IMG/VR virus record: IMGVR_UViG_3300011187_000006
Span: 1 to 64,000 of that record
DNA: 64,000 nt
From: an uncultured virus (IMG/VR IMGVR_UViG_3300011187_000006)
Lineage: Duplodnaviria > Heunggongvirae > Uroviricota > Caudoviricetes
Reading direction: 5' to 3' (one strand)
The notes beneath the pieces were generated by a model, which saw only the letters and a list, made by a program, of their open reading frames with translations, searched no databases and was not told the DNA's origin. Shown one piece after another: positions 31,928-54,122 of the stretch (its first letter is position 1; each line of letters starts with the position of its first letter). A program made the translations under genes and the position numbers.

Positions 31928-31946
31928 AATTTTTTAATTAAATTAA

Positions 31947-31977
31947 AAAAGTTTATCTTTAAAAGATAAACTTTTTT
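31947..31977. terminator. Hairpin terminator
   Basis: AAAAAGTTTATCTT/AAGATAAACTTTTT. Confidence 0.55.
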
Positions 31978-32059
31978 ACAAAGGGCTATGATTTTATCCT
32001 TCGAGATGGGAAGGGCTTATCACAATTAAGCTTTGCCTATTATACTAGCACCCAATTAG

Positions 32060-32147
32060 CGAGAGAGGATAGGATTCGAACCCCGAAGTCTGTTAAGACA
32101 CTCATATTACTTTATATAAGCCCATTTGACCACTCTGGAACTCTCTC
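32060..32147 (-). pseudogene. tRNA-Ser-like element with aberrant anticodon loop and mismatched T stem
   Basis: GAGAGAG/CTCTCTC acceptor, AGTGG D loop, GTCT/AGAC variable arm, TTCGAAT; no 7-nt anticodon loop. Confidence 0.55.
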
Positions 32148-35574: not shown

Positions 35575-35711
35575 ATACTATATATTCAAATATAACAGTT
35601 TAGTTTGAATTATATGTTGTTTTTTGTGTTAATTTTTTTTGTTGCTTATTAACAACAAAAAGTGCTAAAATGTTGCTTATTAACAACATTTAGTTTTAAC
35701 TATAATTTTTG

Positions 35712-35784
35712 TCGAAGATGTCCGATTCGAACAGCAATTCGATGTCCCAAACATCGTGTGTTACCAGATTACACTACACCCTCG
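35712..35784 (-). tRNA. tRNA-Pro(TGG), imperfect T stem
   Basis: Anticodon arm CGATG-TTTGGGA-CATCG. Confidence 0.7.
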
Positions 35785-35793
35785 CTATACTTG

Positions 35794-35867
35794 TTACCCC
35801 AGTAGGGTTCGAACCTACAATCTCCTGGACCAAAGCCAGACGTGTTAACCAATTACACTATAGAGCA
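35794..35867 (-). tRNA. tRNA-Gln(TTG)
   Basis: Cloverleaf; TCTGG-CTTTGGT-CCAGG. Confidence 0.88.
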
Positions 35868-35873
35868 TTTTTG

Positions 35874-35945
35874 CAGTCCATAGGGGATTCGAACCCCTAT
35901 CTTCCGAGAGACAGTCGGAAATGATAACCTTTACACTAATGGACT
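35874..35945 (-). tRNA. tRNA-Asp(GTC)
   Basis: Cloverleaf; TCCGA-CTGTCTC-TCGGA. Confidence 0.88.
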
Positions 35946-35957
35946 ATTAAAAATTTG

Positions 35958-36031
35958 TCGAGAAGACAGGAATCGAACCTGCTAACTGATGCCTCCAATG
36001 CACCCGTGCTTATAACCTTAGTCACTTCTCG
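35958..36031 (-). tRNA. tRNA-Pro(TGG)
   Basis: CGAGAAG/CTTCTCG acceptor; GGTGC-ATTGGAG-GCATC. Confidence 0.78.
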
Positions 36032-36040
36032 ATTAACTTG

Positions 36041-36114
36041 TTACCCCAGCAGGGTTCGAACCTGCAATCTTCTGGACCAAAACCAGATGTGTTAGCCAAT
36101 TACACTATGGGGCA
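36041..36114 (-). tRNA. tRNA-Gln(TTG)
   Basis: Cloverleaf; TCTGG-TTTTGGT-CCAGA. Confidence 0.9.
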
Positions 36115-36126
36115 ATTTAATATTAG

Positions 36127-36199
36127 CAGCTCTGATGGGAATCGAACCCACTCCGTTACGTGAGACAGACGTACATCTTAACCATTTGACCTCAGAGCT
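36127..36199 (-). tRNA. tRNA-Asp(GTC)
   Basis: Cloverleaf; TACGT-CTGTCTC-ACGTA. Confidence 0.88.
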
Positions 36200-36207
36200 A
36201 TATAAAC

Positions 36208-36246
36208 AAAAAAACTCGGTTAATCTAAAAGACTAACCGAGTTTTT
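36208..36246 (-). terminator. Attenuator terminator upstream of the Asp/Gln/Pro tRNA cluster
   Basis: AAAACTCGGTTAGTC...GATTAACCGAGTTTTTTT on the minus strand. Confidence 0.85.
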
Positions 36247-36264: not shown

Positions 36265-36369
36265 TCAACTTAAATTTAAAACATAGTTAGCACCTTTCGT
36301 ATCAGAATCCTGATCGATATCAACTTGGGGTTGAGGGTTAACTACTATGTTTAAGTTTAAATTTTTCAT
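36265..36369 (-). CDS. Leader peptide MKNLNLNIVVNPQPQVDIDQDSDTKGANYVLNLS
   Basis: 34-aa ORF between promoter and terminator; P/Q/D block matches the downstream tRNAs. Confidence 0.8.
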   Translation of the reverse strand: MKNLNLNIVVNPQPQVDIDQDSDTKGANYVLNLS

Positions 36370-39427: not shown

Positions 39428-39859
39428 ATGATAAAAAAATATAAAGACTTTAACAATAAAAAAGTGAGCGAAGCAGTAACTGCAAAAGCTAAAAAGACAG
39501 AGATATTTGGTGTTGATAGAAAACCATCTAATGTTATGTCTAGGGAGGAGCAAGATTTCTATGACTACTATACTAGAAAGAAATTTAGAGGTATGTCAAA
39601 ATATGAACTTAATAGTAAAGTATTCGATTTGGCACAAAGAGATGATGATTTAGCAGTGTTGGCACAATTCTGTTTGCAAATAGAAAGAGAAAGTATCGCT
39701 GGTGATGATTACATCGCTAAAGAAATAGATAAAGGGATAGAAGATGTTATTCCTGTAGTAACAGATAATACTGGTGATGCTGGTAAAGATTTAGATGATA
39801 TATCTTTAGATGATATAGATGAGATAAGGGATGATATAGAAAGTCTTAAAAATAAATAA
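39428..39859 (+). CDS. Hypothetical protein (MIKKYKDF N-terminus)
   Basis: ORF track; TTAATATATA upstream. Confidence 0.55.
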   Translation: MIKKYKDFNNKKVSEAVTAKAKKTEIFGVDRKPSNVMSREEQDFYDYYTRKKFRGMSKYELNSKVFDLAQRDDDLAVLAQFCLQIERESIAGDDYIAKEIDKGIEDVIPVVTDNTGDAGKDLDDISLDDIDEIRDDIESLKNK

Positions 39860-39871
39860 AACAAATAATAT

Positions 39872-39912
39872 AAAAAAGAGGGGATATAATTAATTATATC
39901 CCCTCTTTTTTT
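39872..39912. terminator. Bidirectional terminator ending the tRNA operon
   Basis: AAAAAAGAGGGGATATAAT/ATTATATCCCCTCTTTTTT. Confidence 0.85.
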
Positions 39913-39913
39913 G

Positions 39914-39999
39914 TACCGCTAGTTGGACTTGAACCAACAATAAGATTTCTCTAACTTGGATATGAGCCAAGCACAATTACCACATCTGTTCATAGCGAT
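39914..39999 (-). tRNA. tRNA-Met(CAT) (or Ile2) with a long variable arm
   Basis: CTTGG-CTCATAT-CCAAG; variable region TTAGAGAAATCTTAT. Confidence 0.75.
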
Positions 40000-40003
40000 T
40001 TAG

Positions 40004-40093
40004 TACACCAGGTGGGATTTGAACCCACGTTGTTCACCTCAAAGGGTATCAGATTTTAAGTCTGATGCGTTTCATCCACTTCGCCACTGGTGC
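40004..40093 (-). tRNA. tRNA-Leu(TAA)
   Basis: TCAGA-CTTAAAA-TCTGA; long variable arm. Confidence 0.88.
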
Positions 40094-40103
40094 ATTTTTT
40101 TAG

Positions 40104-40177
40104 AGCTGACAGAGGGATTCAAACCCACAACTTTTTGATTACAAATCAAAATGCTCTACCAATTGAGCTATGTCAGC
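40104..40177 (-). tRNA. tRNA-Thr(TGT)
   Basis: TTTGA-TTTGTAA-TCAAA. Confidence 0.85.
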
Positions 40178-40184
40178 ATATTAG

Positions 40185-40256
40185 AGTACCTAGAGGGATT
40201 CAAACCCCCGTACGATGGGTTGCAGCCACCTACCTAAATCACTCGGTCATAGGTAC
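40185..40256 (-). tRNA. tRNA-Cys(GCA)
   Basis: GGTGG-CTGCAAC-CCATC; U discriminator. Confidence 0.85.
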
Positions 40257-40262
40257 ATTTTG

Positions 40263-40336
40263 TAGTTCTGGTTGGATTCGAACCAACGACTTCTTCCTTG
40301 TAAGGGAAGCATTCTGAACCCCTGAATTACAGAACT
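40263..40336 (-). tRNA. tRNA-Val(TAC)
   Basis: CTTCC-CTTACAA-GGAAG. Confidence 0.88.
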
Positions 40337-40345
40337 TTTTATTTG

Positions 40346-40426
40346 TACCCTAGATAGGACTCGAACCTATATTTTCAGCTTCCAATTACCCTTAATTGTT
40401 TAGAAGACAATCGGGACTACTAAGGC
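40346..40426 (-). tRNA. Non-canonical tRNA-Arg(TCT) lacking a D arm
   Basis: GCCTTAG/CTAGGGT acceptor; ATTGT-CTTCTAA-ACAAT only ~8 nt after it; long variable region; normal T arm. Confidence 0.7.
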
Positions 40427-40436
40427 ATTTATTTTG

Positions 40437-40526
40437 TACCAGTGGTCGGACTCGAACCGACAATGTTTACCTCTTGGGTACTAGTTCCTAAGACTAGCGT
40501 GTTTCATCCAATTTCACCACACTGGT
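40437..40526 (-). tRNA. tRNA-Leu(TAG)
   Basis: CTAGT-CTTAGGA-ACTAG; long variable arm. Confidence 0.88.
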
Positions 40527-40532
40527 ATTTAT

Positions 40533-41273
40533 TTATATTTTACTATGTATTTCTCTATGACAATTAGAACATAATAAAATACATTTATCAACTTCTTTTT
40601 TTAACCTTTCAAGTGACCAAGACTTTCCGCCGATACTAAAATCTTTTTCATTAGGATCTAAATGATGAAATTCTAAAGCACTTATACATTTAGAATATCC
40701 ACATTTTTCACATTTACCACCTTTATATTCTAGTAGTTCGACTTTCTTTCTTTTTCTCCAAGATACTACATATATTGCTTTTTCTTTCTTTATTTCATCT
40801 TTTGTCATTTTTTTTCTTTTTTTAAGTGTTACATATTTTCGTATAGTACGAAAAGAATGTCCCATTTCTTTACTAACTTTCTTAATACTACCCAACTTAT
40901 CATATTGTGTTCTTATTTCATCTATCTCTGTTTCTGATAATTTACCATATTTACCACAATTTACCAAATCGTGCATTCTACATATTTTAGATATGGACTT
41001 TATTGAAATATTTGTTTTTTCTTTTATATCAGAATAACTTAATTTATTTTTCCTTAATTTTATTACCTCACCAATATCATAGTTTTCTATTAAAAATGAT
41101 TTATCTTTAAACTGTTTCTTATTTTTTTCAATTACATTTTTCAATTTTATTTTATTATTAGATTTTATTTTAGAGCAATGATAAGATACTGTTGATTTAG
41201 AACAGTTTAATTCTTCACATATTGTTTTATAGCTATGTCCCATTTTTCTTAGTTCTAATATTCTTTCTTTCAT
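40533..41273 (-). CDS. HNH endonuclease with N-terminal HTH repeats, inserted in the tRNA cluster
   Basis: CEKCGY...LEFHH...LCSNCHREIH. Confidence 0.88.
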   Translation of the reverse strand: MKERILELRKMGHSYKTICEELNCSKSTVSYHCSKIKSNNKIKLKNVIEKNKKQFKDKSFLIENYDIGEVIKLRKNKLSYSDIKEKTNISIKSISKICRMHDLVNCGKYGKLSETEIDEIRTQYDKLGSIKKVSKEMGHSFRTIRKYVTLKKRKKMTKDEIKKEKAIYVVSWRKRKKVELLEYKGGKCEKCGYSKCISALEFHHLDPNEKDFSIGGKSWSLERLKKEVDKCILLCSNCHREIHSKI

Positions 41274-41344
41274 ACTATTTATTTTTTATAGTATATATAA
41301 ATATTAGAACTCACCCCTAAACATACATGTCATTTATCTAAAAG

Positions 41345-41426
41345 TCGGCACAGTAGGACTCGAACCTACGTTTTCAACTTACCAACTACAGTTCTCCAAG
41401 GTATCAGCTTGGGCTGGTATGTGCCG
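41345..41426 (-). tRNA. Non-canonical tRNA-Ile(GAT) lacking a D arm
   Basis: CGGCACA/TGTGCCG acceptor; CCAAG-CTGATAC-CTTGG 7 nt after it; long variable region; normal T arm. Confidence 0.7.
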
Positions 41427-41434
41427 ATTATTTG

Positions 41435-41508
41435 CTCCTCCCACGAGATTTGAACTCGTAACCTTCTGATTAACAGTCAGATGCATCTGCCAGTTGAGCT
41501 AGAGAGGA
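41435..41508 (-). tRNA. tRNA-Asn(GTT)
   Basis: TCTGA-CTGTTAA-TCAGA. Confidence 0.9.
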
Positions 41509-41520
41509 TTGTAATATCTG

Positions 41521-41605
41521 TACTAATGATGAGATTTGAACTCATATAATCATTTCTGATTAAAGGATTTTGAATCCCTCGTGTCTACCATTCCACCACA
41601 CTAGC
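41521..41605 (-). tRNA. tRNA-Leu(CAA)
   Basis: AGGGA-TTCAAAA-TCCTT; long variable arm. Confidence 0.88.
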
Positions 41606-41612
41606 ATAAAAC

Positions 41613-41648
41613 AAAAAAACCCCTAGAATTTTCATTTCTAGGGGTTTT
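41613..41648 (-). terminator. Attenuator terminator upstream of the 10-tRNA cluster
   Basis: AAAACCCCTAGAA...TTCTAGGGGTTTTTTT on the minus strand. Confidence 0.88.
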
Positions 41649-41671
41649 AGTTATTTGTATTTTTTATTTCA

Positions 41672-41791
41672 CTATGTCATAAGATGAAATTTATTAAATA
41701 CACTAGAACCCCTAGATGGTCTATTACATAACATAATATTCACCACATTGAGCGTTAAGTTTCTATTTGTATTTAGGTTTAAATTTTTCAT
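41672..41791 (-). CDS. Leader peptide MKNLNLNTNRNLTLNVVNIMLCNRPSRGSSVFNKFHLMT
   Basis: 39-aa ORF; codons 3-24 use only amino acids of the downstream tRNAs. Confidence 0.82.
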   Translation of the reverse strand: MKNLNLNTNRNLTLNVVNIMLCNRPSRGSSVFNKFHLMT

Positions 41792-41936
41792 CGCTATTAT
41801 ATATTAAATTTTATTTCTTCCTTTGGTTATTTATATTCTTTTTTTACTAAAAGTTTAAATTATTTTAGGTTCTGTGCAAATATATAACTAATATTTGTTT
41901 CTCACAAGTGTTTTTTAAAAAGATTTAAATTTATTT

Positions 41937-42158
41937 TCATATGAGTTCTAATTCAACTTCACTATCATGACTAAACGTATAGTATTGGTCATGGTTTAAG
42001 TTTATATCAATCCCACTTTCGATAGTATCTATACGCCTATCGGATTTATCGCTTACATCTAGTCGCTTAACAACACTATCATTGTCATAATCCTTAATCT
42101 CGATATACTTAAAAAGAGGTACATTAGTATCTATAATAGAATTATTGTCTTTATTCAT
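41937..42158 (-). CDS. Small hypothetical protein
   Basis: ORF track. Confidence 0.5.
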   Translation of the reverse strand: MNKDNNSIIDTNVPLFKYIEIKDYDNDSVVKRLDVSDKSDRRIDTIESGIDINLNHDQYYTFSHDSEVELELI

Positions 42159-42223
42159 TGTTTTATTATTATTATTGTGTAAATATAGAAGCTAATAGCC
42201 AAAAAATTTATAAAAACATTTAA

Positions 42224-42490
42224 CTAGGCTTGTGATTCGCTTTGTTCTTTTGTCCATTGTGTGAAGTGTAGCATATATGCTGGTTCAAATCCGTTTGTTT
42301 TAAGTGGGTGGTCGCTATTCATTATTACATCAATCGCACTTTTTGGTAGTATTTTAGCCTTTTGGTCATCATTTAATTTGCTATCCAAGTACTTGTGAAA
42401 TTCAATTCCGATTTCATCAATATCCTCATTGCTTATTTCGCCAATCTCAGAGAAGTTCTTTCTGATGAAGTATCTAAATGTATCTTTCAT
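42224..42490 (-). CDS. Small hypothetical protein
   Basis: ORF track; co-oriented run. Confidence 0.5.
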   Translation of the reverse strand: MKDTFRYFIRKNFSEIGEISNEDIDEIGIEFHKYLDSKLNDDQKAKILPKSAIDVIMNSDHPLKTNGFEPAYMLHFTQWTKEQSESQA

Positions 42491-52298: not shown

Positions 52299-52591
52299 AA
52301 TAATATGTACATTTTCTCTATATATATATTATTAATATGTTTCTAAGAAATCTCCATTAATGAATCACCACCATAAACTATCACATCTACTGAATTTGTT
52401 AGCTTAGAAATCGGTGACATGTCCACAATATCAACAACTCACCTATCTATAGTGAAGCTTTGATATTTTCTAGCCTGATGATTTTTAGACAACTTCTCCA
52501 ATTCATCTGATGCAAATTTAGTAATTACTCCTCTCTCTATCTATCTCGCACTCAAATCTTCTATAATTATTGTTTTTTTTTAATTAAGCTG

Positions 52592-52669
52592 TGGAGGATA
52601 TCGGATTTGAACCGATGTATGACACAGCTTGCAAAGCTATCGCTTACGACCAGACTGAGCTAATCCCCC
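52592..52669 (-). tRNA. tRNA-Ala(TGC)
   Basis: G3:U70 acceptor pair; ATAGC-TTTGCAA-GCTGT. Confidence 0.85.
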
Positions 52670-52677
52670 CATTAATG

Positions 52678-52751
52678 AGCAAATGATAGGATTCGAACCT
52701 ACAACTTTCTGAATGGAAATCAGACACTCTAGCCAATTGAGCTACATTTGC
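52678..52751 (-). tRNA. tRNA-Gly(TCC)
   Basis: TCTGA-TTTCCAT-TCAGA. Confidence 0.87.
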
Positions 52752-52762
52752 ATTTTATATCG

Positions 52763-52836
52763 AGCAGGTAATCGGGATCAAACCGATTCTATTCTAGCTT
52801 GGAAGGCTAGTGCACCATCACTTATGCGTTACCTGC
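52763..52836 (-). tRNA. tRNA-Gly(TCC)
   Basis: CTAGC-CTTCCAA-GCTAG. Confidence 0.8.
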
Positions 52837-52844
52837 TTATTTTG

Positions 52845-52918
52845 TTGGTATGATGGGTATCGAACCCACTATCTCATGGATATAAGCCATGTGCTTTTAC
52901 CATCTAAGCTACATACCA
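52845..52918 (-). tRNA. tRNA-Ile(TAT)
   Basis: CATGG-CTTATAT-CCATG. Confidence 0.85.
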
Positions 52919-52932
52919 ATTTATAATAAAAT

Positions 52933-52961
52933 AAAAAACCCAGTCATTTCTGACTGGGTTT
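52933..52961 (-). terminator. Attenuator terminator upstream of the Ile/Gly/Gly/Ala cluster
   Basis: AAACCCAGTCA-GAAA-TGACTGGGTTTTTT on the minus strand. Confidence 0.88.
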
Positions 52962-52984: not shown

Positions 52985-53059
52985 TTACATAACAATTCCC
53001 AGCCAATGAGTTTTCCCTTTGCCTATCGCTATTATTGCTATGTTATTAATTGTTCTCAT
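52985..53059 (-). CDS. Leader peptide MRTINNIAIIAIGKGKTHWLGIVM
   Basis: 24-aa ORF; ATA GCA ATA ATA GCG ATA GGC AAA GGG block. Confidence 0.8.
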   Translation of the reverse strand: MRTINNIAIIAIGKGKTHWLGIVM

Positions 53060-53325: not shown

Positions 53326-53578
53326 AATAATTTATTTTTGTAATTCAATTTCTTTTAATATCCTTTTCGGATAAAAAAACGAAAAATGTGTCTTAGCTTG
53401 CTCAACATTGTAGGCTTTAAATACACATTTATGTATTTTTTTACCAGTCTTATAAACATATACACACTTAAAATCTTGTATTGTGTTTTTTTCCATTTAA
53501 AAGCTTTTTAAAATTAAATAATAGGCAAATATAAGCATTATATTATTATAATCCTATTTTAAACAATATTTAAATTAG

Positions 53579-53651
53579 TACTCCGTGGGAGAATTGAACT
53601 CCCGTTACCAAGTTGAAAGCCTGGGGTCCTAGTCCACTAGACGAACGGAGC
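53579..53651 (-). tRNA. tRNA-Glu(TTC)
   Basis: CCAGG-CTTTCAA-CTTGG. Confidence 0.88.
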
Positions 53652-53661
53652 ATGTACTAAG

Positions 53662-53744
53662 TGGGCGTAGTGGGACTCGAACCCACAATACCTTTCGGAA
53701 TCGGTTTTACAGACCGACATGACTACCTGTGCCATATTACCCCC
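53662..53744 (-). tRNA. tRNA-Tyr(GTA)
   Basis: TCGGT-CTGTAAA-ACCGA; variable arm CC-GAAA-GG. Confidence 0.82.
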
Positions 53745-53757
53745 ATATTTTTAAAAC

Positions 53758-53794
53758 AAAAAACCCAGTCTATATTACTAGACTGGGTTTTTTT
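53758..53794 (-). terminator. Attenuator terminator upstream of the Tyr/Glu tRNAs
   Basis: AAACCCAGTCTA...TAGACTGGGTTTTTT. Confidence 0.88.
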
Positions 53795-53810
53795 TATACT
53801 ATAATTTAAT

Positions 53811-53894
53811 TTACATTATAGACATCAAAAGACTAGCCGAGCGTTTTCGTTCAGATTCTTCATAATAATATTCTATGTTAGTAAAAGTATTCAT
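53811..53894 (-). CDS. Leader peptide MNTFTNIEYYYEESERKRSASLLMSIM
   Basis: 27-aa ORF; GAA TAT TAT TAT GAA GAA TCT GAA block. Confidence 0.82.
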   Translation of the reverse strand: MNTFTNIEYYYEESERKRSASLLMSIM

Positions 53895-53914
53895 TTTATT
53901 TATTTATTTATTTG

Positions 53915-53987
53915 TAGCGGGAGTTGGACTCGAACCAACGACCTCTAGGTTATGAGCCTAGCGAGCTACCTACTGCTCTACCCCGCG
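53915..53987 (-). tRNA. tRNA-Met(CAT), initiator-like
   Basis: CGCGGGG start with unpaired position 1:72; CTAGG-CTCATAA-CCTAG. Confidence 0.88.
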
Positions 53988-54122
53988 ATTTATGTTTATA
54001 TACTATATATTAAAAAAGTTTTGTCTCTTTTGATATTTATTATACAAATATATGAAATGTATTAATTTAACACACTATTTTTAAGATATAATTAACAAAG
54101 ATATTATTTTAATATATATGGT

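Follow-up and report, generated by a model that had tools for sequence, protein, structure and literature searches.

Leader-peptide attenuators place a short open reading frame (ORF) rich in regulatory codons ahead of mutually exclusive antiterminator and terminator hairpins, and the position of the ribosome on that ORF decides which of them forms. Besides trpL, hisL, leuL and pheL, they include the multivalent leaders of thr (Thr and Ile) and ilvGMEDA (Leu, Val and Ile), and in their classical form they sense tRNA charging. The attenuator of the pheST (phenylalanyl-tRNA synthetase) operon of E. coli has a leader peptide written in cognate codons, and the T-box leaders, which also sense tRNA, recognise the uncharged molecule itself by means of a specifier codon and the T-box sequence and need no translation for this. 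The reasons for which phages carry tRNAs and the control of their expression are, to our knowledge, not settled. Here we report a 39-codon leader ORF (leader B) that is followed by an intrinsic terminator and a cluster of tRNA genes (cluster B) on the minus strand of IMGVR_UViG_3300011187_000006, a 78.7-kb record of an uncultured virus, of which the first 64 kb were analysed (the window). From its sequence and from folding models we consider it likely that this leader and its relatives are ribosome-mediated attenuators in the style of trp and his, with tRNAs as the regulated genes and feedback on decoding capacity as the result. The record has a completeness rating of 11% and a G + C content of 28.7%, and the 24 sequencing runs listed for positions 39850-42250 of the window include no RNA run, all being DNA from lake or salt-lake metagenomes.

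Like the thr and ilv leaders, leader B has several amino acids read by one leader. The pheST attenuator resembles it in placing a gene of the translation apparatus under a leader peptide in cognate codons, but controls a synthetase for a single amino acid and not tRNA genes. T-box riboswitches share the terminator/antiterminator switch that reports the state of specific tRNAs; unlike them, the phage module would use the translating ribosome as its sensor. The T-box model (RF00230) matched nothing in the window at its gathering threshold and nothing in 41300-41900 even at E <= 5, and the models His_leader (RF00514; 26.4 bits vs a gathering threshold of 49) and Phe_leader (RF01859; 19.1 bits vs 55) stayed below threshold, both aligning over the terminator part only. 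With the leader-peptide attenuators of enterobacterial amino-acid operons (see also PMC1183508 and PMC3082878) the phage leaders have in common the codon-rich short ORF, the exclusive hairpins and the decisive position of the ribosome. They differ in that the genes under their putative control are tRNAs and one ORF with helix-turn-helix (HTH) and HNH domains rather than biosynthesis or synthetase genes, that leader B covers up to eight amino acids and has its antiterminator strand inside the ORF, that the helix of regions 1 and 2 (1:2) is weak or dispensable in its class (class B, see below), and that several paralogous leaders partition the tRNA repertoire. The cysteine-responsive attenuators formed by leaderless polycysteine ORFs of mycobacteria (bioRxiv 10.1101/834739) are likewise short ORFs near the 5' end that are enriched in one type of codon and tune downstream expression; unlike the phage leaders, they regulate operons that encode proteins and respond to one amino acid only, and their abstract mentions no terminator/antiterminator design of the present kind. 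A full-text literature search, with subscription journals and supplements outside its scope, found no description of leader-peptide attenuation of tRNA genes, and passages of PMC2965389 and PMC7162821 contain none of leader-peptide attenuators on such genes.

A preliminary description of this stretch had claimed that 22 consecutive codons after MK encode no amino acids but N, L, T, R, V, I, M and C, and that most of them fit the anticodons of the cluster. Both statements held, since codons 3-24 of the ORF contain these residues only and, by strict wobble, 21 of the 22 block codons can be decoded by the downstream anticodons, with CTC as the sole exception. Against a codon background of 49 long ORFs of the record (17,034 codons), the whole ORF is enriched both at the codon level (26/38 decodable, background 0.296, P = 8.7e-7) and at the amino-acid level (28/38, background 0.425, P = 9.6e-5). 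A six-frame scan of the 78.7-kb record yielded a single stop-free 22-codon window with 22/22 in-set residues, which is leader B, and leader B is also the sole 22-codon window in which at least 19/22 codons are decodable by the cluster. Lysine is the most frequent residue of the background (9.9%), in which N, L, I and K are all common; it has no tRNA in cluster B and occurs once in the 24-codon head of leader B.

Region 2, the antiterminator strand, lies within the ORF, 11 codons ahead of the stop (Table 1). Its core TCTAGGGGTT at 41716..41707 is an exact 10-nucleotide (nt) copy of the terminator 3' arm (41627..41618), and the perfect complement AACCCCTAGA is found at 41646..41637 in the terminator 5' arm; the complementarity noted earlier between the in-ORF copy and this arm was thus located at both ends and is exact. 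Exact copies of TCTAGGGGTT occur three times in the window, all at leader B (in the ORF, in the terminator 3' arm and, on the opposite strand, as the 5' arm), and words with one mismatch are not above chance (5 vs 2.85 expected; 18 of 100 shuffles reach 5). The terminator hairpin (41648..41616) has 13 pairs, five of them G-C, and a loop of 7, followed by a T-run that ends at 41611, 5 nt before the start of tRNA-Leu(CAA) at 41605. It is placed between the leader ORF and the putatively regulated tRNA genes, as leader-peptide attenuators require, and the short gap leaves no room for a promoter of the tRNA itself, so that the tRNAs would be made only by read-through. The fold of the 181-nt leader has a free energy of -39.7 kcal/mol (z = -3.7), and 1 of 200 shuffles was as stable. 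A Pfam search gave no match for the leader B peptide or for the 73-amino-acid (aa) ORF upstream of it.

Table 1. Leaders, terminators, tRNA clusters and start signals located in the window.
Feature	Position	Strand	Basis
Leader ORF B, 39 codons, MKNLNLNTNRNLTLNVVNIMLCNRPSRGSSVFNKFHLMT	41672..41791	-	ORF reading; frame kept in 28 unique orthologs
Regulatory block of leader B, codons 3-24, NLNLNTNRNLTLNVVNIMLCNR	41720..41785	-	21/22 codons decodable; top six-frame window
Region 1, UAAAUACAAAUAGA; may pair with the 3' part of region 2	41762..41775	-	Pairing in minimum free energy fold
Inner hairpin P1, UAUUAU-GUUAU-GUAAUA	41722..41738	-	Folds and alignment of 28 sequences
Region 2, antiterminator strand, core UCUAGGGGUU at 41716..41707	41695..41716	-	Exact copy of terminator 3' arm
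Intrinsic terminator of leader B (regions 3 and 4) and T-run	41611..41648	-	13 pairs; RNAalifold consensus
tRNA cluster B	39913..41605	-	ARAGORN, Rfam, reading by eye
TAATATATA motif, 6 nt before the ATG of leader B	41798..41806	-	Motif scan
TAnnTTTG-type promoter-like box TATATTTG ahead of leader B	41877..41884	-	Motif scan
Leader ORF A, MKNLNLNIVVNPQPQVDIDQDSDTKGANYVLNLS; P/Q/D block 36336..36301	36265..36369	-	ORF reading
Candidate region 2 of leader A, GCUAACUAUGU	36291..36281	-	Read by eye
Terminator of leader A	36208..36246	-	Folds, reading by eye
tRNA cluster A: Asp, Gln, Pro-like, Asp, Gln, Pro	35711..36199	-	ARAGORN, Rfam
Leader ORF E, MRTINNIAIIAIGKGKTHWLGIVM; block 53041..53015	52985..53059	-	ORF reading
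Region 2 of leader E, GGCUGGGAAU	53004..52995	-	Sequence reading
Terminator of leader E	52933..52961	-	Folds
tRNA cluster E: Ile TAT, Gly TCC (Rfam only), Gly TCC, Ala TGC	52591..52918	-	ARAGORN, Rfam
Contrast: Met CAT-Tyr-Glu cluster with TAATATATA motif, no leader ORF or terminator	53578..54012	-	Sequence reading

In the mechanism that we propose, transcription would start upstream of the leader ORF, whose first 24 codons are almost all read by tRNAs encoded just downstream, and region 2 would pair with region 3 (2:3) and thereby block the terminator hairpin of regions 3 and 4 (3:4). Provided that the ORF is translated in step with transcription, fast decoding would bring the ribosome to region 2 while the polymerase is making regions 3 and 4, the terminator would form, and transcription would stop 5 nt before the first tRNA. 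At a slow codon, for which charged tRNA is scarce, the ribosome would lag, region 2 would be free, 2:3 would form and the polymerase would enter the tRNA cluster. The outcome would be a negative feedback that covers the decoding of eight amino acids together and has the supply of tRNA, not that of amino acids, as its signal. Paralogous leaders, each using the codons that its own tRNA block reads, would split the tRNA repertoire into separately sensed regulons. The giant lake phage would probably raise the output of a tRNA set only when ribosomes read the matched codons slowly.

By blastn, leader B is 71% identical to a sequence in LR745206.1, a 634,780-bp uncultured phage, and the conserved block pattern of its class was found at five IMG/VR loci; tRNA searches in five related records gave 22-61 tRNAs each. 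The pattern of the promoter region matched 11 viral and 114 metagenome stretches, from which 17 matches with at least 600 nt downstream but no tRNA were excluded from the leader counts. Of the 68 loci that combine the promoter pattern with a tRNA within 450 nt, 66 have a complete leader ORF that was detected by script; L061 has a leader ORF as well, which the script missed. At L116 a class-A leader is reduced to 10 codons (MKNLNLNIRM*) and leads directly into tRNA-Asp with no terminator, which makes this metagenome locus a natural 'attenuator-deleted' variant.

A separate finder, which required an ORF, returned 82 unique leader-terminator sequences, 73 of which were classed by its rule (B 28, D 30, A 13, E 1, F 1) and the remaining nine by reading (5 G, 3 E-like and 1 not a leader). 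The classes A, B, D, E, F and G differ in leader content, and the letters A, B and E are also used for the clusters of the window. Class B (28 unique sequences; N, L, T, V, I, M, C, R) is followed by tRNAs for Asn, Ile, Arg(TCT), Leu, Val and Thr; class D (30; e.g. MTTNSTHKNFSKSHKWFS...) by His, Phe, Trp and four Lys; class A (13; P, Q, D) by Gln, Asp and Pro; class E with the E-like sequences (4; I(ATA), A, G) by Ile(TAT), Gly and Ala; class F (1; ...IAIRRAERGYAYEGY...) by Tyr, Glu, Ile(TAT), Gly and Arg; and class G (5; ...SKSSSRSS...) by Arg(ACG) and Ser(TGA). All listed loci at which tRNAs were called follow this rule for the three large classes (B before Asn/Ile/Arg(TCT)/Leu/Val/Thr, D before Phe/His/Trp/Lys, A before Gln/Asp/Pro). 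Class G is placed within class-D operons, the D leader coming first and G after it, as tandem attenuators. Leaders of classes G and F, which are absent from the window, were seen at L009:2631-2758 (+), L026:3028-3156 (+) and L089:1296-1455 (-); the G type is a Ser/Arg-rich leader in a His/Phe/Lys operon, and the F type is a leader of I, A, R, E, G and Y before Tyr, Glu, Ile, Gly and Arg tRNAs. A scan of cellular genome contigs for the class-D block gave one match in total, on a scaffold of a cyanobacterial metagenome-assembled genome (L150), which was rejected as chance because it lies inside a coding region with no tRNA nearby.

The pairing of leaders with tRNA sets was evaluated by a permutation test on six class representatives and six tRNA sets, in which the true pairing ranked first of 720, with a log-likelihood sum of 32.1 vs 2.2 for the best complete mismatch. 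The binomial P values per class were uneven, at 9e-6 (B), 3e-5 (G), 3e-4 (E), 0.014 (A), 0.016 (F) and 0.063 (D). Class-B orthologs from the 634-kb phage, from IMG/VR contigs and from metagenomes retain the ORF in frame, together with its in-set composition and the terminator. The alignment of the 28 sequences shows an invariant ATG, and every indel that was read within the ORF is a multiple of 3. The stop follows 24-39 codons downstream in all 82 sequences, as selected by a finder that required an ORF. Among 19 distinct class-B peptides, in-set codons make up 403/410 in the head vs 99/267 in the tail, figures that serve as proportions only and carry no P value because the sequences are related.

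These results bear on the alternative that the leader is a switch made of RNA only, which binds tRNA or a protein directly and in which the ORF is incidental. It would agree with the class-B core, which is invariant in nucleotides, and with the precedent of the tRNA-sensing T-box leaders. We regard it as extremely unlikely in view of the invariant ATG, the indels in multiples of three and the stop kept in all 82 sequences (with the ORF requirement just given), of a codon content that changes by class together with the tRNAs, and of the leader's lack of any Rfam match at threshold or of a T-box match even at E <= 5.

The helices of the proposed attenuator were examined in the alignments of class B (28 sequences) and class D (30 sequences). 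In class B, the 2:3 antiterminator has 11 pairs with 89% of the cells paired and three pairs changed on both sides, the 3:4 terminator has 13 pairs (94% paired, four changed on both sides), and the P1 hairpin has eight (98%, one changed on both sides); the 1:2 pairing consists of two helices of 5 and 4 pairs (90% and 81% paired). Together, 2:3 and P1 have 92% of their cells paired vs 27-48% in slid controls. In the lineage of the window, CUGAGGG has become CUAGGGG in regions 2 and 4, with the matching change in region 3, and another 2:3 pair is U-A in 18 sequences and C-G in seven. Class D has an invariant 2:3 core of six pairs (100% paired, none changed on both sides) and a 1:2 helix of 11 pairs (98% paired). 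The pair that flanks the class-D core co-varies, as counted directly in the 30 sequences because a 3-nt gap in the alignment had misplaced the partners (A-T in 18, G-C in 4, G-T in 3, unpaired in 5). The antiterminator and the terminators of class A were read by eye.

Leader B might also be an ordinary small gene with a leaky terminator, its amino-acid overlap with the cluster being a product of AT-rich composition and chance. Such an origin would suit a genome of this base composition, in which N, L, I and K are common residues, and the ordinary number of one-mismatch TCTAGGGGTT-like words. It is disfavoured, and the least probable of the explanations considered here, by the near absence from the head of lysine, otherwise so frequent, by the uniqueness of the six-frame windows, by the first rank among 720 pairings, by three arms that co-vary and by a peptide to which Pfam has no match.

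Ribosome-masked folding, which the preliminary description had proposed as a check, was run for ten leaders of classes A, B, D and E, each folded as far as the loop of its terminator under a 28-nt mask around every possible A-site codon, and it predicts antitermination with the ribosome on the matched codons. With the A site in the matched block, the 5' arm of the terminator has a probability of about 0.7-0.9 of pairing upstream, with lower values at the first or last few codons of the block in G000-A, G002-D and G003-D. With the A site over region 2 this probability is mostly 0.0-0.3; it is still 0.3-0.6 with region 2 masked in two class-A leaders from outside the window and in G003-D. In the absence of a ribosome, the values are 0.80-0.91 for the B leaders, 0.02 for leader A and 0.22 for leader E of the window, and 0.3-0.6 for D. 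According to these models leader B looks like a three-part switch, and leaders A and E look like classical four-part attenuators; the 1:2 pairing is predicted to be effective in the latter two but not in leader B. The earlier proposal that one multivalent leader integrates eight inputs through codons that mirror the tRNAs gains support from the conserved anatomy of the orthologs, from the co-variation of 2:3 and 3:4, from the leaders of the other clusters, with the true pairing first of 720, and from the masked folds.

The same attenuator hardware could answer to another signal, namely starvation for amino acids or a general stress on translation, for instance from toxins that target the ribosome or from host shut-off; matched codons would then only serve to sample many amino acids. 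The mechanism cannot distinguish an uncharged tRNA from a missing one, classical attenuators are known to sense charging, and an N-terminal part is common across leader classes (MKNLNLN, MTTN, MKTIN), all of which fits this signal. However, amino-acid starvation would not be relieved by extra tRNA, and a general stress sensor would need neither a matched leader of its own for each cluster nor a match at the level of isoacceptors (ATA with Ile(UAU), AGA with Arg(UCU), CGC/CGA with Arg(ACG)). On this argument from logic we favour tRNA supply as the signal and hold the other signals to be unlikely.

It is very unlikely that the leaders encode sequence-specific arrest peptides of the TnaC or Erm-leader kind, which would stall for a small molecule or factor and in which the identity of the codons would be of secondary importance. 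At the peptide level, strong conservation is seen in both the core of class B, NLTLNVVNI[TM]LCN(I)R, and that of class D, FSKS..KWFS, as arrest would demand; but these cores overlap RNA helices (P1 and region 1), which would account for their nucleotide conservation, there are at least six classes with unrelated cores that each match their own tRNA set, and the variable positions of class B swap residues and yet remain in-set (403/410).

Several observations weigh against the interpretation of the leaders as codon-matched attenuators. The match is imperfect: CTC in leader B is not strictly decodable, leader B has no TTG codon for tRNA-Leu(CAA), and the leaders of some relatives contain codons for which no tRNA was detected downstream (Cys in W01-B, Met in G001-B and G003-B, Trp in G001-D). 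For small tRNA sets the codon-level enrichment over the whole ORF is weak (P 0.014-0.066 for class A and 0.006-0.28 for class D). Two of the ten tRNAs of cluster B are non-canonical, and the Ile and Arg inputs depend on those two. The class-B core block is nearly invariant in nucleotides, and constraints on codons, peptide and RNA are therefore inseparable there, and the 2:3 co-variation of class B stems from few events (the lineage of the window and the one pair in seven sequences). The 1:2 helix has no pair changed on both sides in either class B (28) or class D (30), and the RNAalifold consensus of class B contains only the terminator and a 3-bp stem, neither P1 nor 1:2. Finally, the antiterminator of leader B is predicted at 0.80 with no ribosome present, and likewise with the ribosome at the stop codon.

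This last value implies that termination at leader B would need a ribosome on region 2 at the right moment, and hence pausing of the polymerase; P1 is a possible pause hairpin, at which ribosome and polymerase would be kept in step. It also affects the earlier claim that an upstream region 1 sequesters region 2. The pairing exists in the minimum free energy fold of leader B, between UAAAUACA..UAGA (41775..41762) and UCUA.UGUAUUUA (41707..41695), but it spans only the 3' extension of region 2 and misses the GGGG core, lacks co-variation and is predicted to lose to the antiterminator even when no ribosome is present. In truncated folds of 15 leaders, 1:2 was kept in three (the terminator being unplaced in G002-B, G002-D, G003-B and G003-D).

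Cluster B consists, in order, of Leu CAA, Asn, an Ile-like element, the HTH-HNH ORF, Leu TAG, Arg TCT, Val, Cys, Thr, Leu TAA and Met CAT. ARAGORN called eight of the tRNAs (Leu CAA, Asn GTT, Leu TAG, Val TAC, Cys GCA, Thr TGT, Leu TAA and Met CAT), and Rfam added a ninth at 40346-40426 (-; 39 bits) with a long variable arm, whose anticodon loop was read by eye as TCT (Arg). The Ile(GAT)-like element at approximately 41340-41425 (-) has the loop CTGATAC and aligns to the Ile(GAT) tRNAs of relatives; it lacks a D arm, was missed by ARAGORN and by Rfam even at E <= 5, and may be a pseudogene. The claim that the ten downstream tRNAs cover eight amino acids therefore stands at the level of anticodon loops, with the reservation that the Ile and Arg members are non-canonical. 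Other non-canonical tRNA-like genes missed by ARAGORN are a Pro(TGG)-like gene at 35958-36031 (-) and a second Gly(TCC) at 52763-52836 (-); these two and Arg(TCT) have Rfam matches at 30-44 bits. The ORF inside the tRNA operon (246 aa; 40533-41273, -) has an N-terminal HTH and a C-terminal HNH endonuclease domain and looks like a homing endonuclease insertion. In the near-identical relative G004 its place is taken by approximately 95 nt with a tRNA-Leu(TAA), and the class-B cluster of G001 is likewise interrupted by an HNH-like ORF.

The window has two further leaders (Table 1). Leader A contains the stretch PQPQVDIDQDSD, the only 12-codon window of the record with at least 9 P/Q/D codons in a six-frame scan; the best six-frame windows for the B set and for the P/Q/D set are thus each unique and lie directly upstream of their own clusters. 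Leader E is rich in Ile, Ala and Gly and has four ATA codons that match tRNA-Ile(UAU); over the whole ORF, 9/23 codons are decodable (P = 2.8e-4), and the six-frame scan with the E set gave two loci with at least 7/9 decodable codons, one of which is leader E. The Met CAT-Tyr-Glu cluster, the sole tRNA cluster that lacks a leader, has no terminator either, as in four relatives, and forms one operon with the leader E module downstream of it. In the window (53914-53987, -) and in the relatives L010, L019, L020 and L022, this leaderless cluster starts with a CAT-anticodon tRNA that begins with CGCGGGG or TGTGG and that, we presume, resembles an initiator tRNA. An ORF at 31945-32105 (-) that was flagged by the leader finder is not a leader, as it overlaps a tRNA-like sequence (32061-32147, -). 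The latter has a 7-bp acceptor stem and a T arm, no ARAGORN call, and as its sole match the tRNA-Sec model below threshold (18.9 bits vs 47).

Upstream of leader B lies a promoter-like box, and its relatives have TTTG-N~20-TAnnTTTG at the same place, which we take to be the Bacteroidota promoter consensus; a scan for sigma-70 promoters found no excess (20 vs 23.3 expected). The motif TAATATATA is a gene-start motif of the phage: it has 32 sites in the record (e.g. 36517+, 39414+, 44018+, 8396-), 17 of which are followed within 25 nt by an ATG that opens an ORF of at least 100 aa, at a spacing of 4-8 or 18-24 nt. It also precedes all three leaders and the leaderless tRNA cluster, with a distance to the ATG of 6-7 nt in leaders B and A and of 16 nt in leader E, and it may be a phage promoter that gives very short 5' leaders. 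PMC7162821 gives Bacteroidetes as the predicted hosts of its phage genomes larger than 634 kb, and the host of the phage in the window probably belongs to the Bacteroidota.

A wider reading, which we put forward tentatively and at somewhat less than even odds, is that the phage has a codon-by-codon homeostat of decoding capacity. The entire elongator tRNA repertoire would be split into regulons, each with its own ribosome-stalling sensor written in the codons that it serves, and in the course of infection the phage would measure the usable tRNA pool of its host and top up only the sets that limit translation. The tRNA losses sensed in this way would include those due to host shut-off and to tRNA-cleaving defence, and the cluster headed by the initiator-like tRNA would be left unregulated because an elongation sensor cannot read an initiator tRNA.

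The module, of approximately 180 nt, would report the decoding speed of chosen codons and would make a compact synthetic part, and as an aid to annotation a leader predicts what follows and so flags non-canonical tRNAs that programs miss. Each leader would spell out the codons that the phage treats as limiting and the tRNAs that share a regulon, which makes the idea directly testable. If it is true, attenuation in the style of trp and his, a 50-year-old paradigm, would extend from amino-acid supply to tRNA supply, and the transcription of tRNA genes would be feedback-controlled by the ribosome itself.

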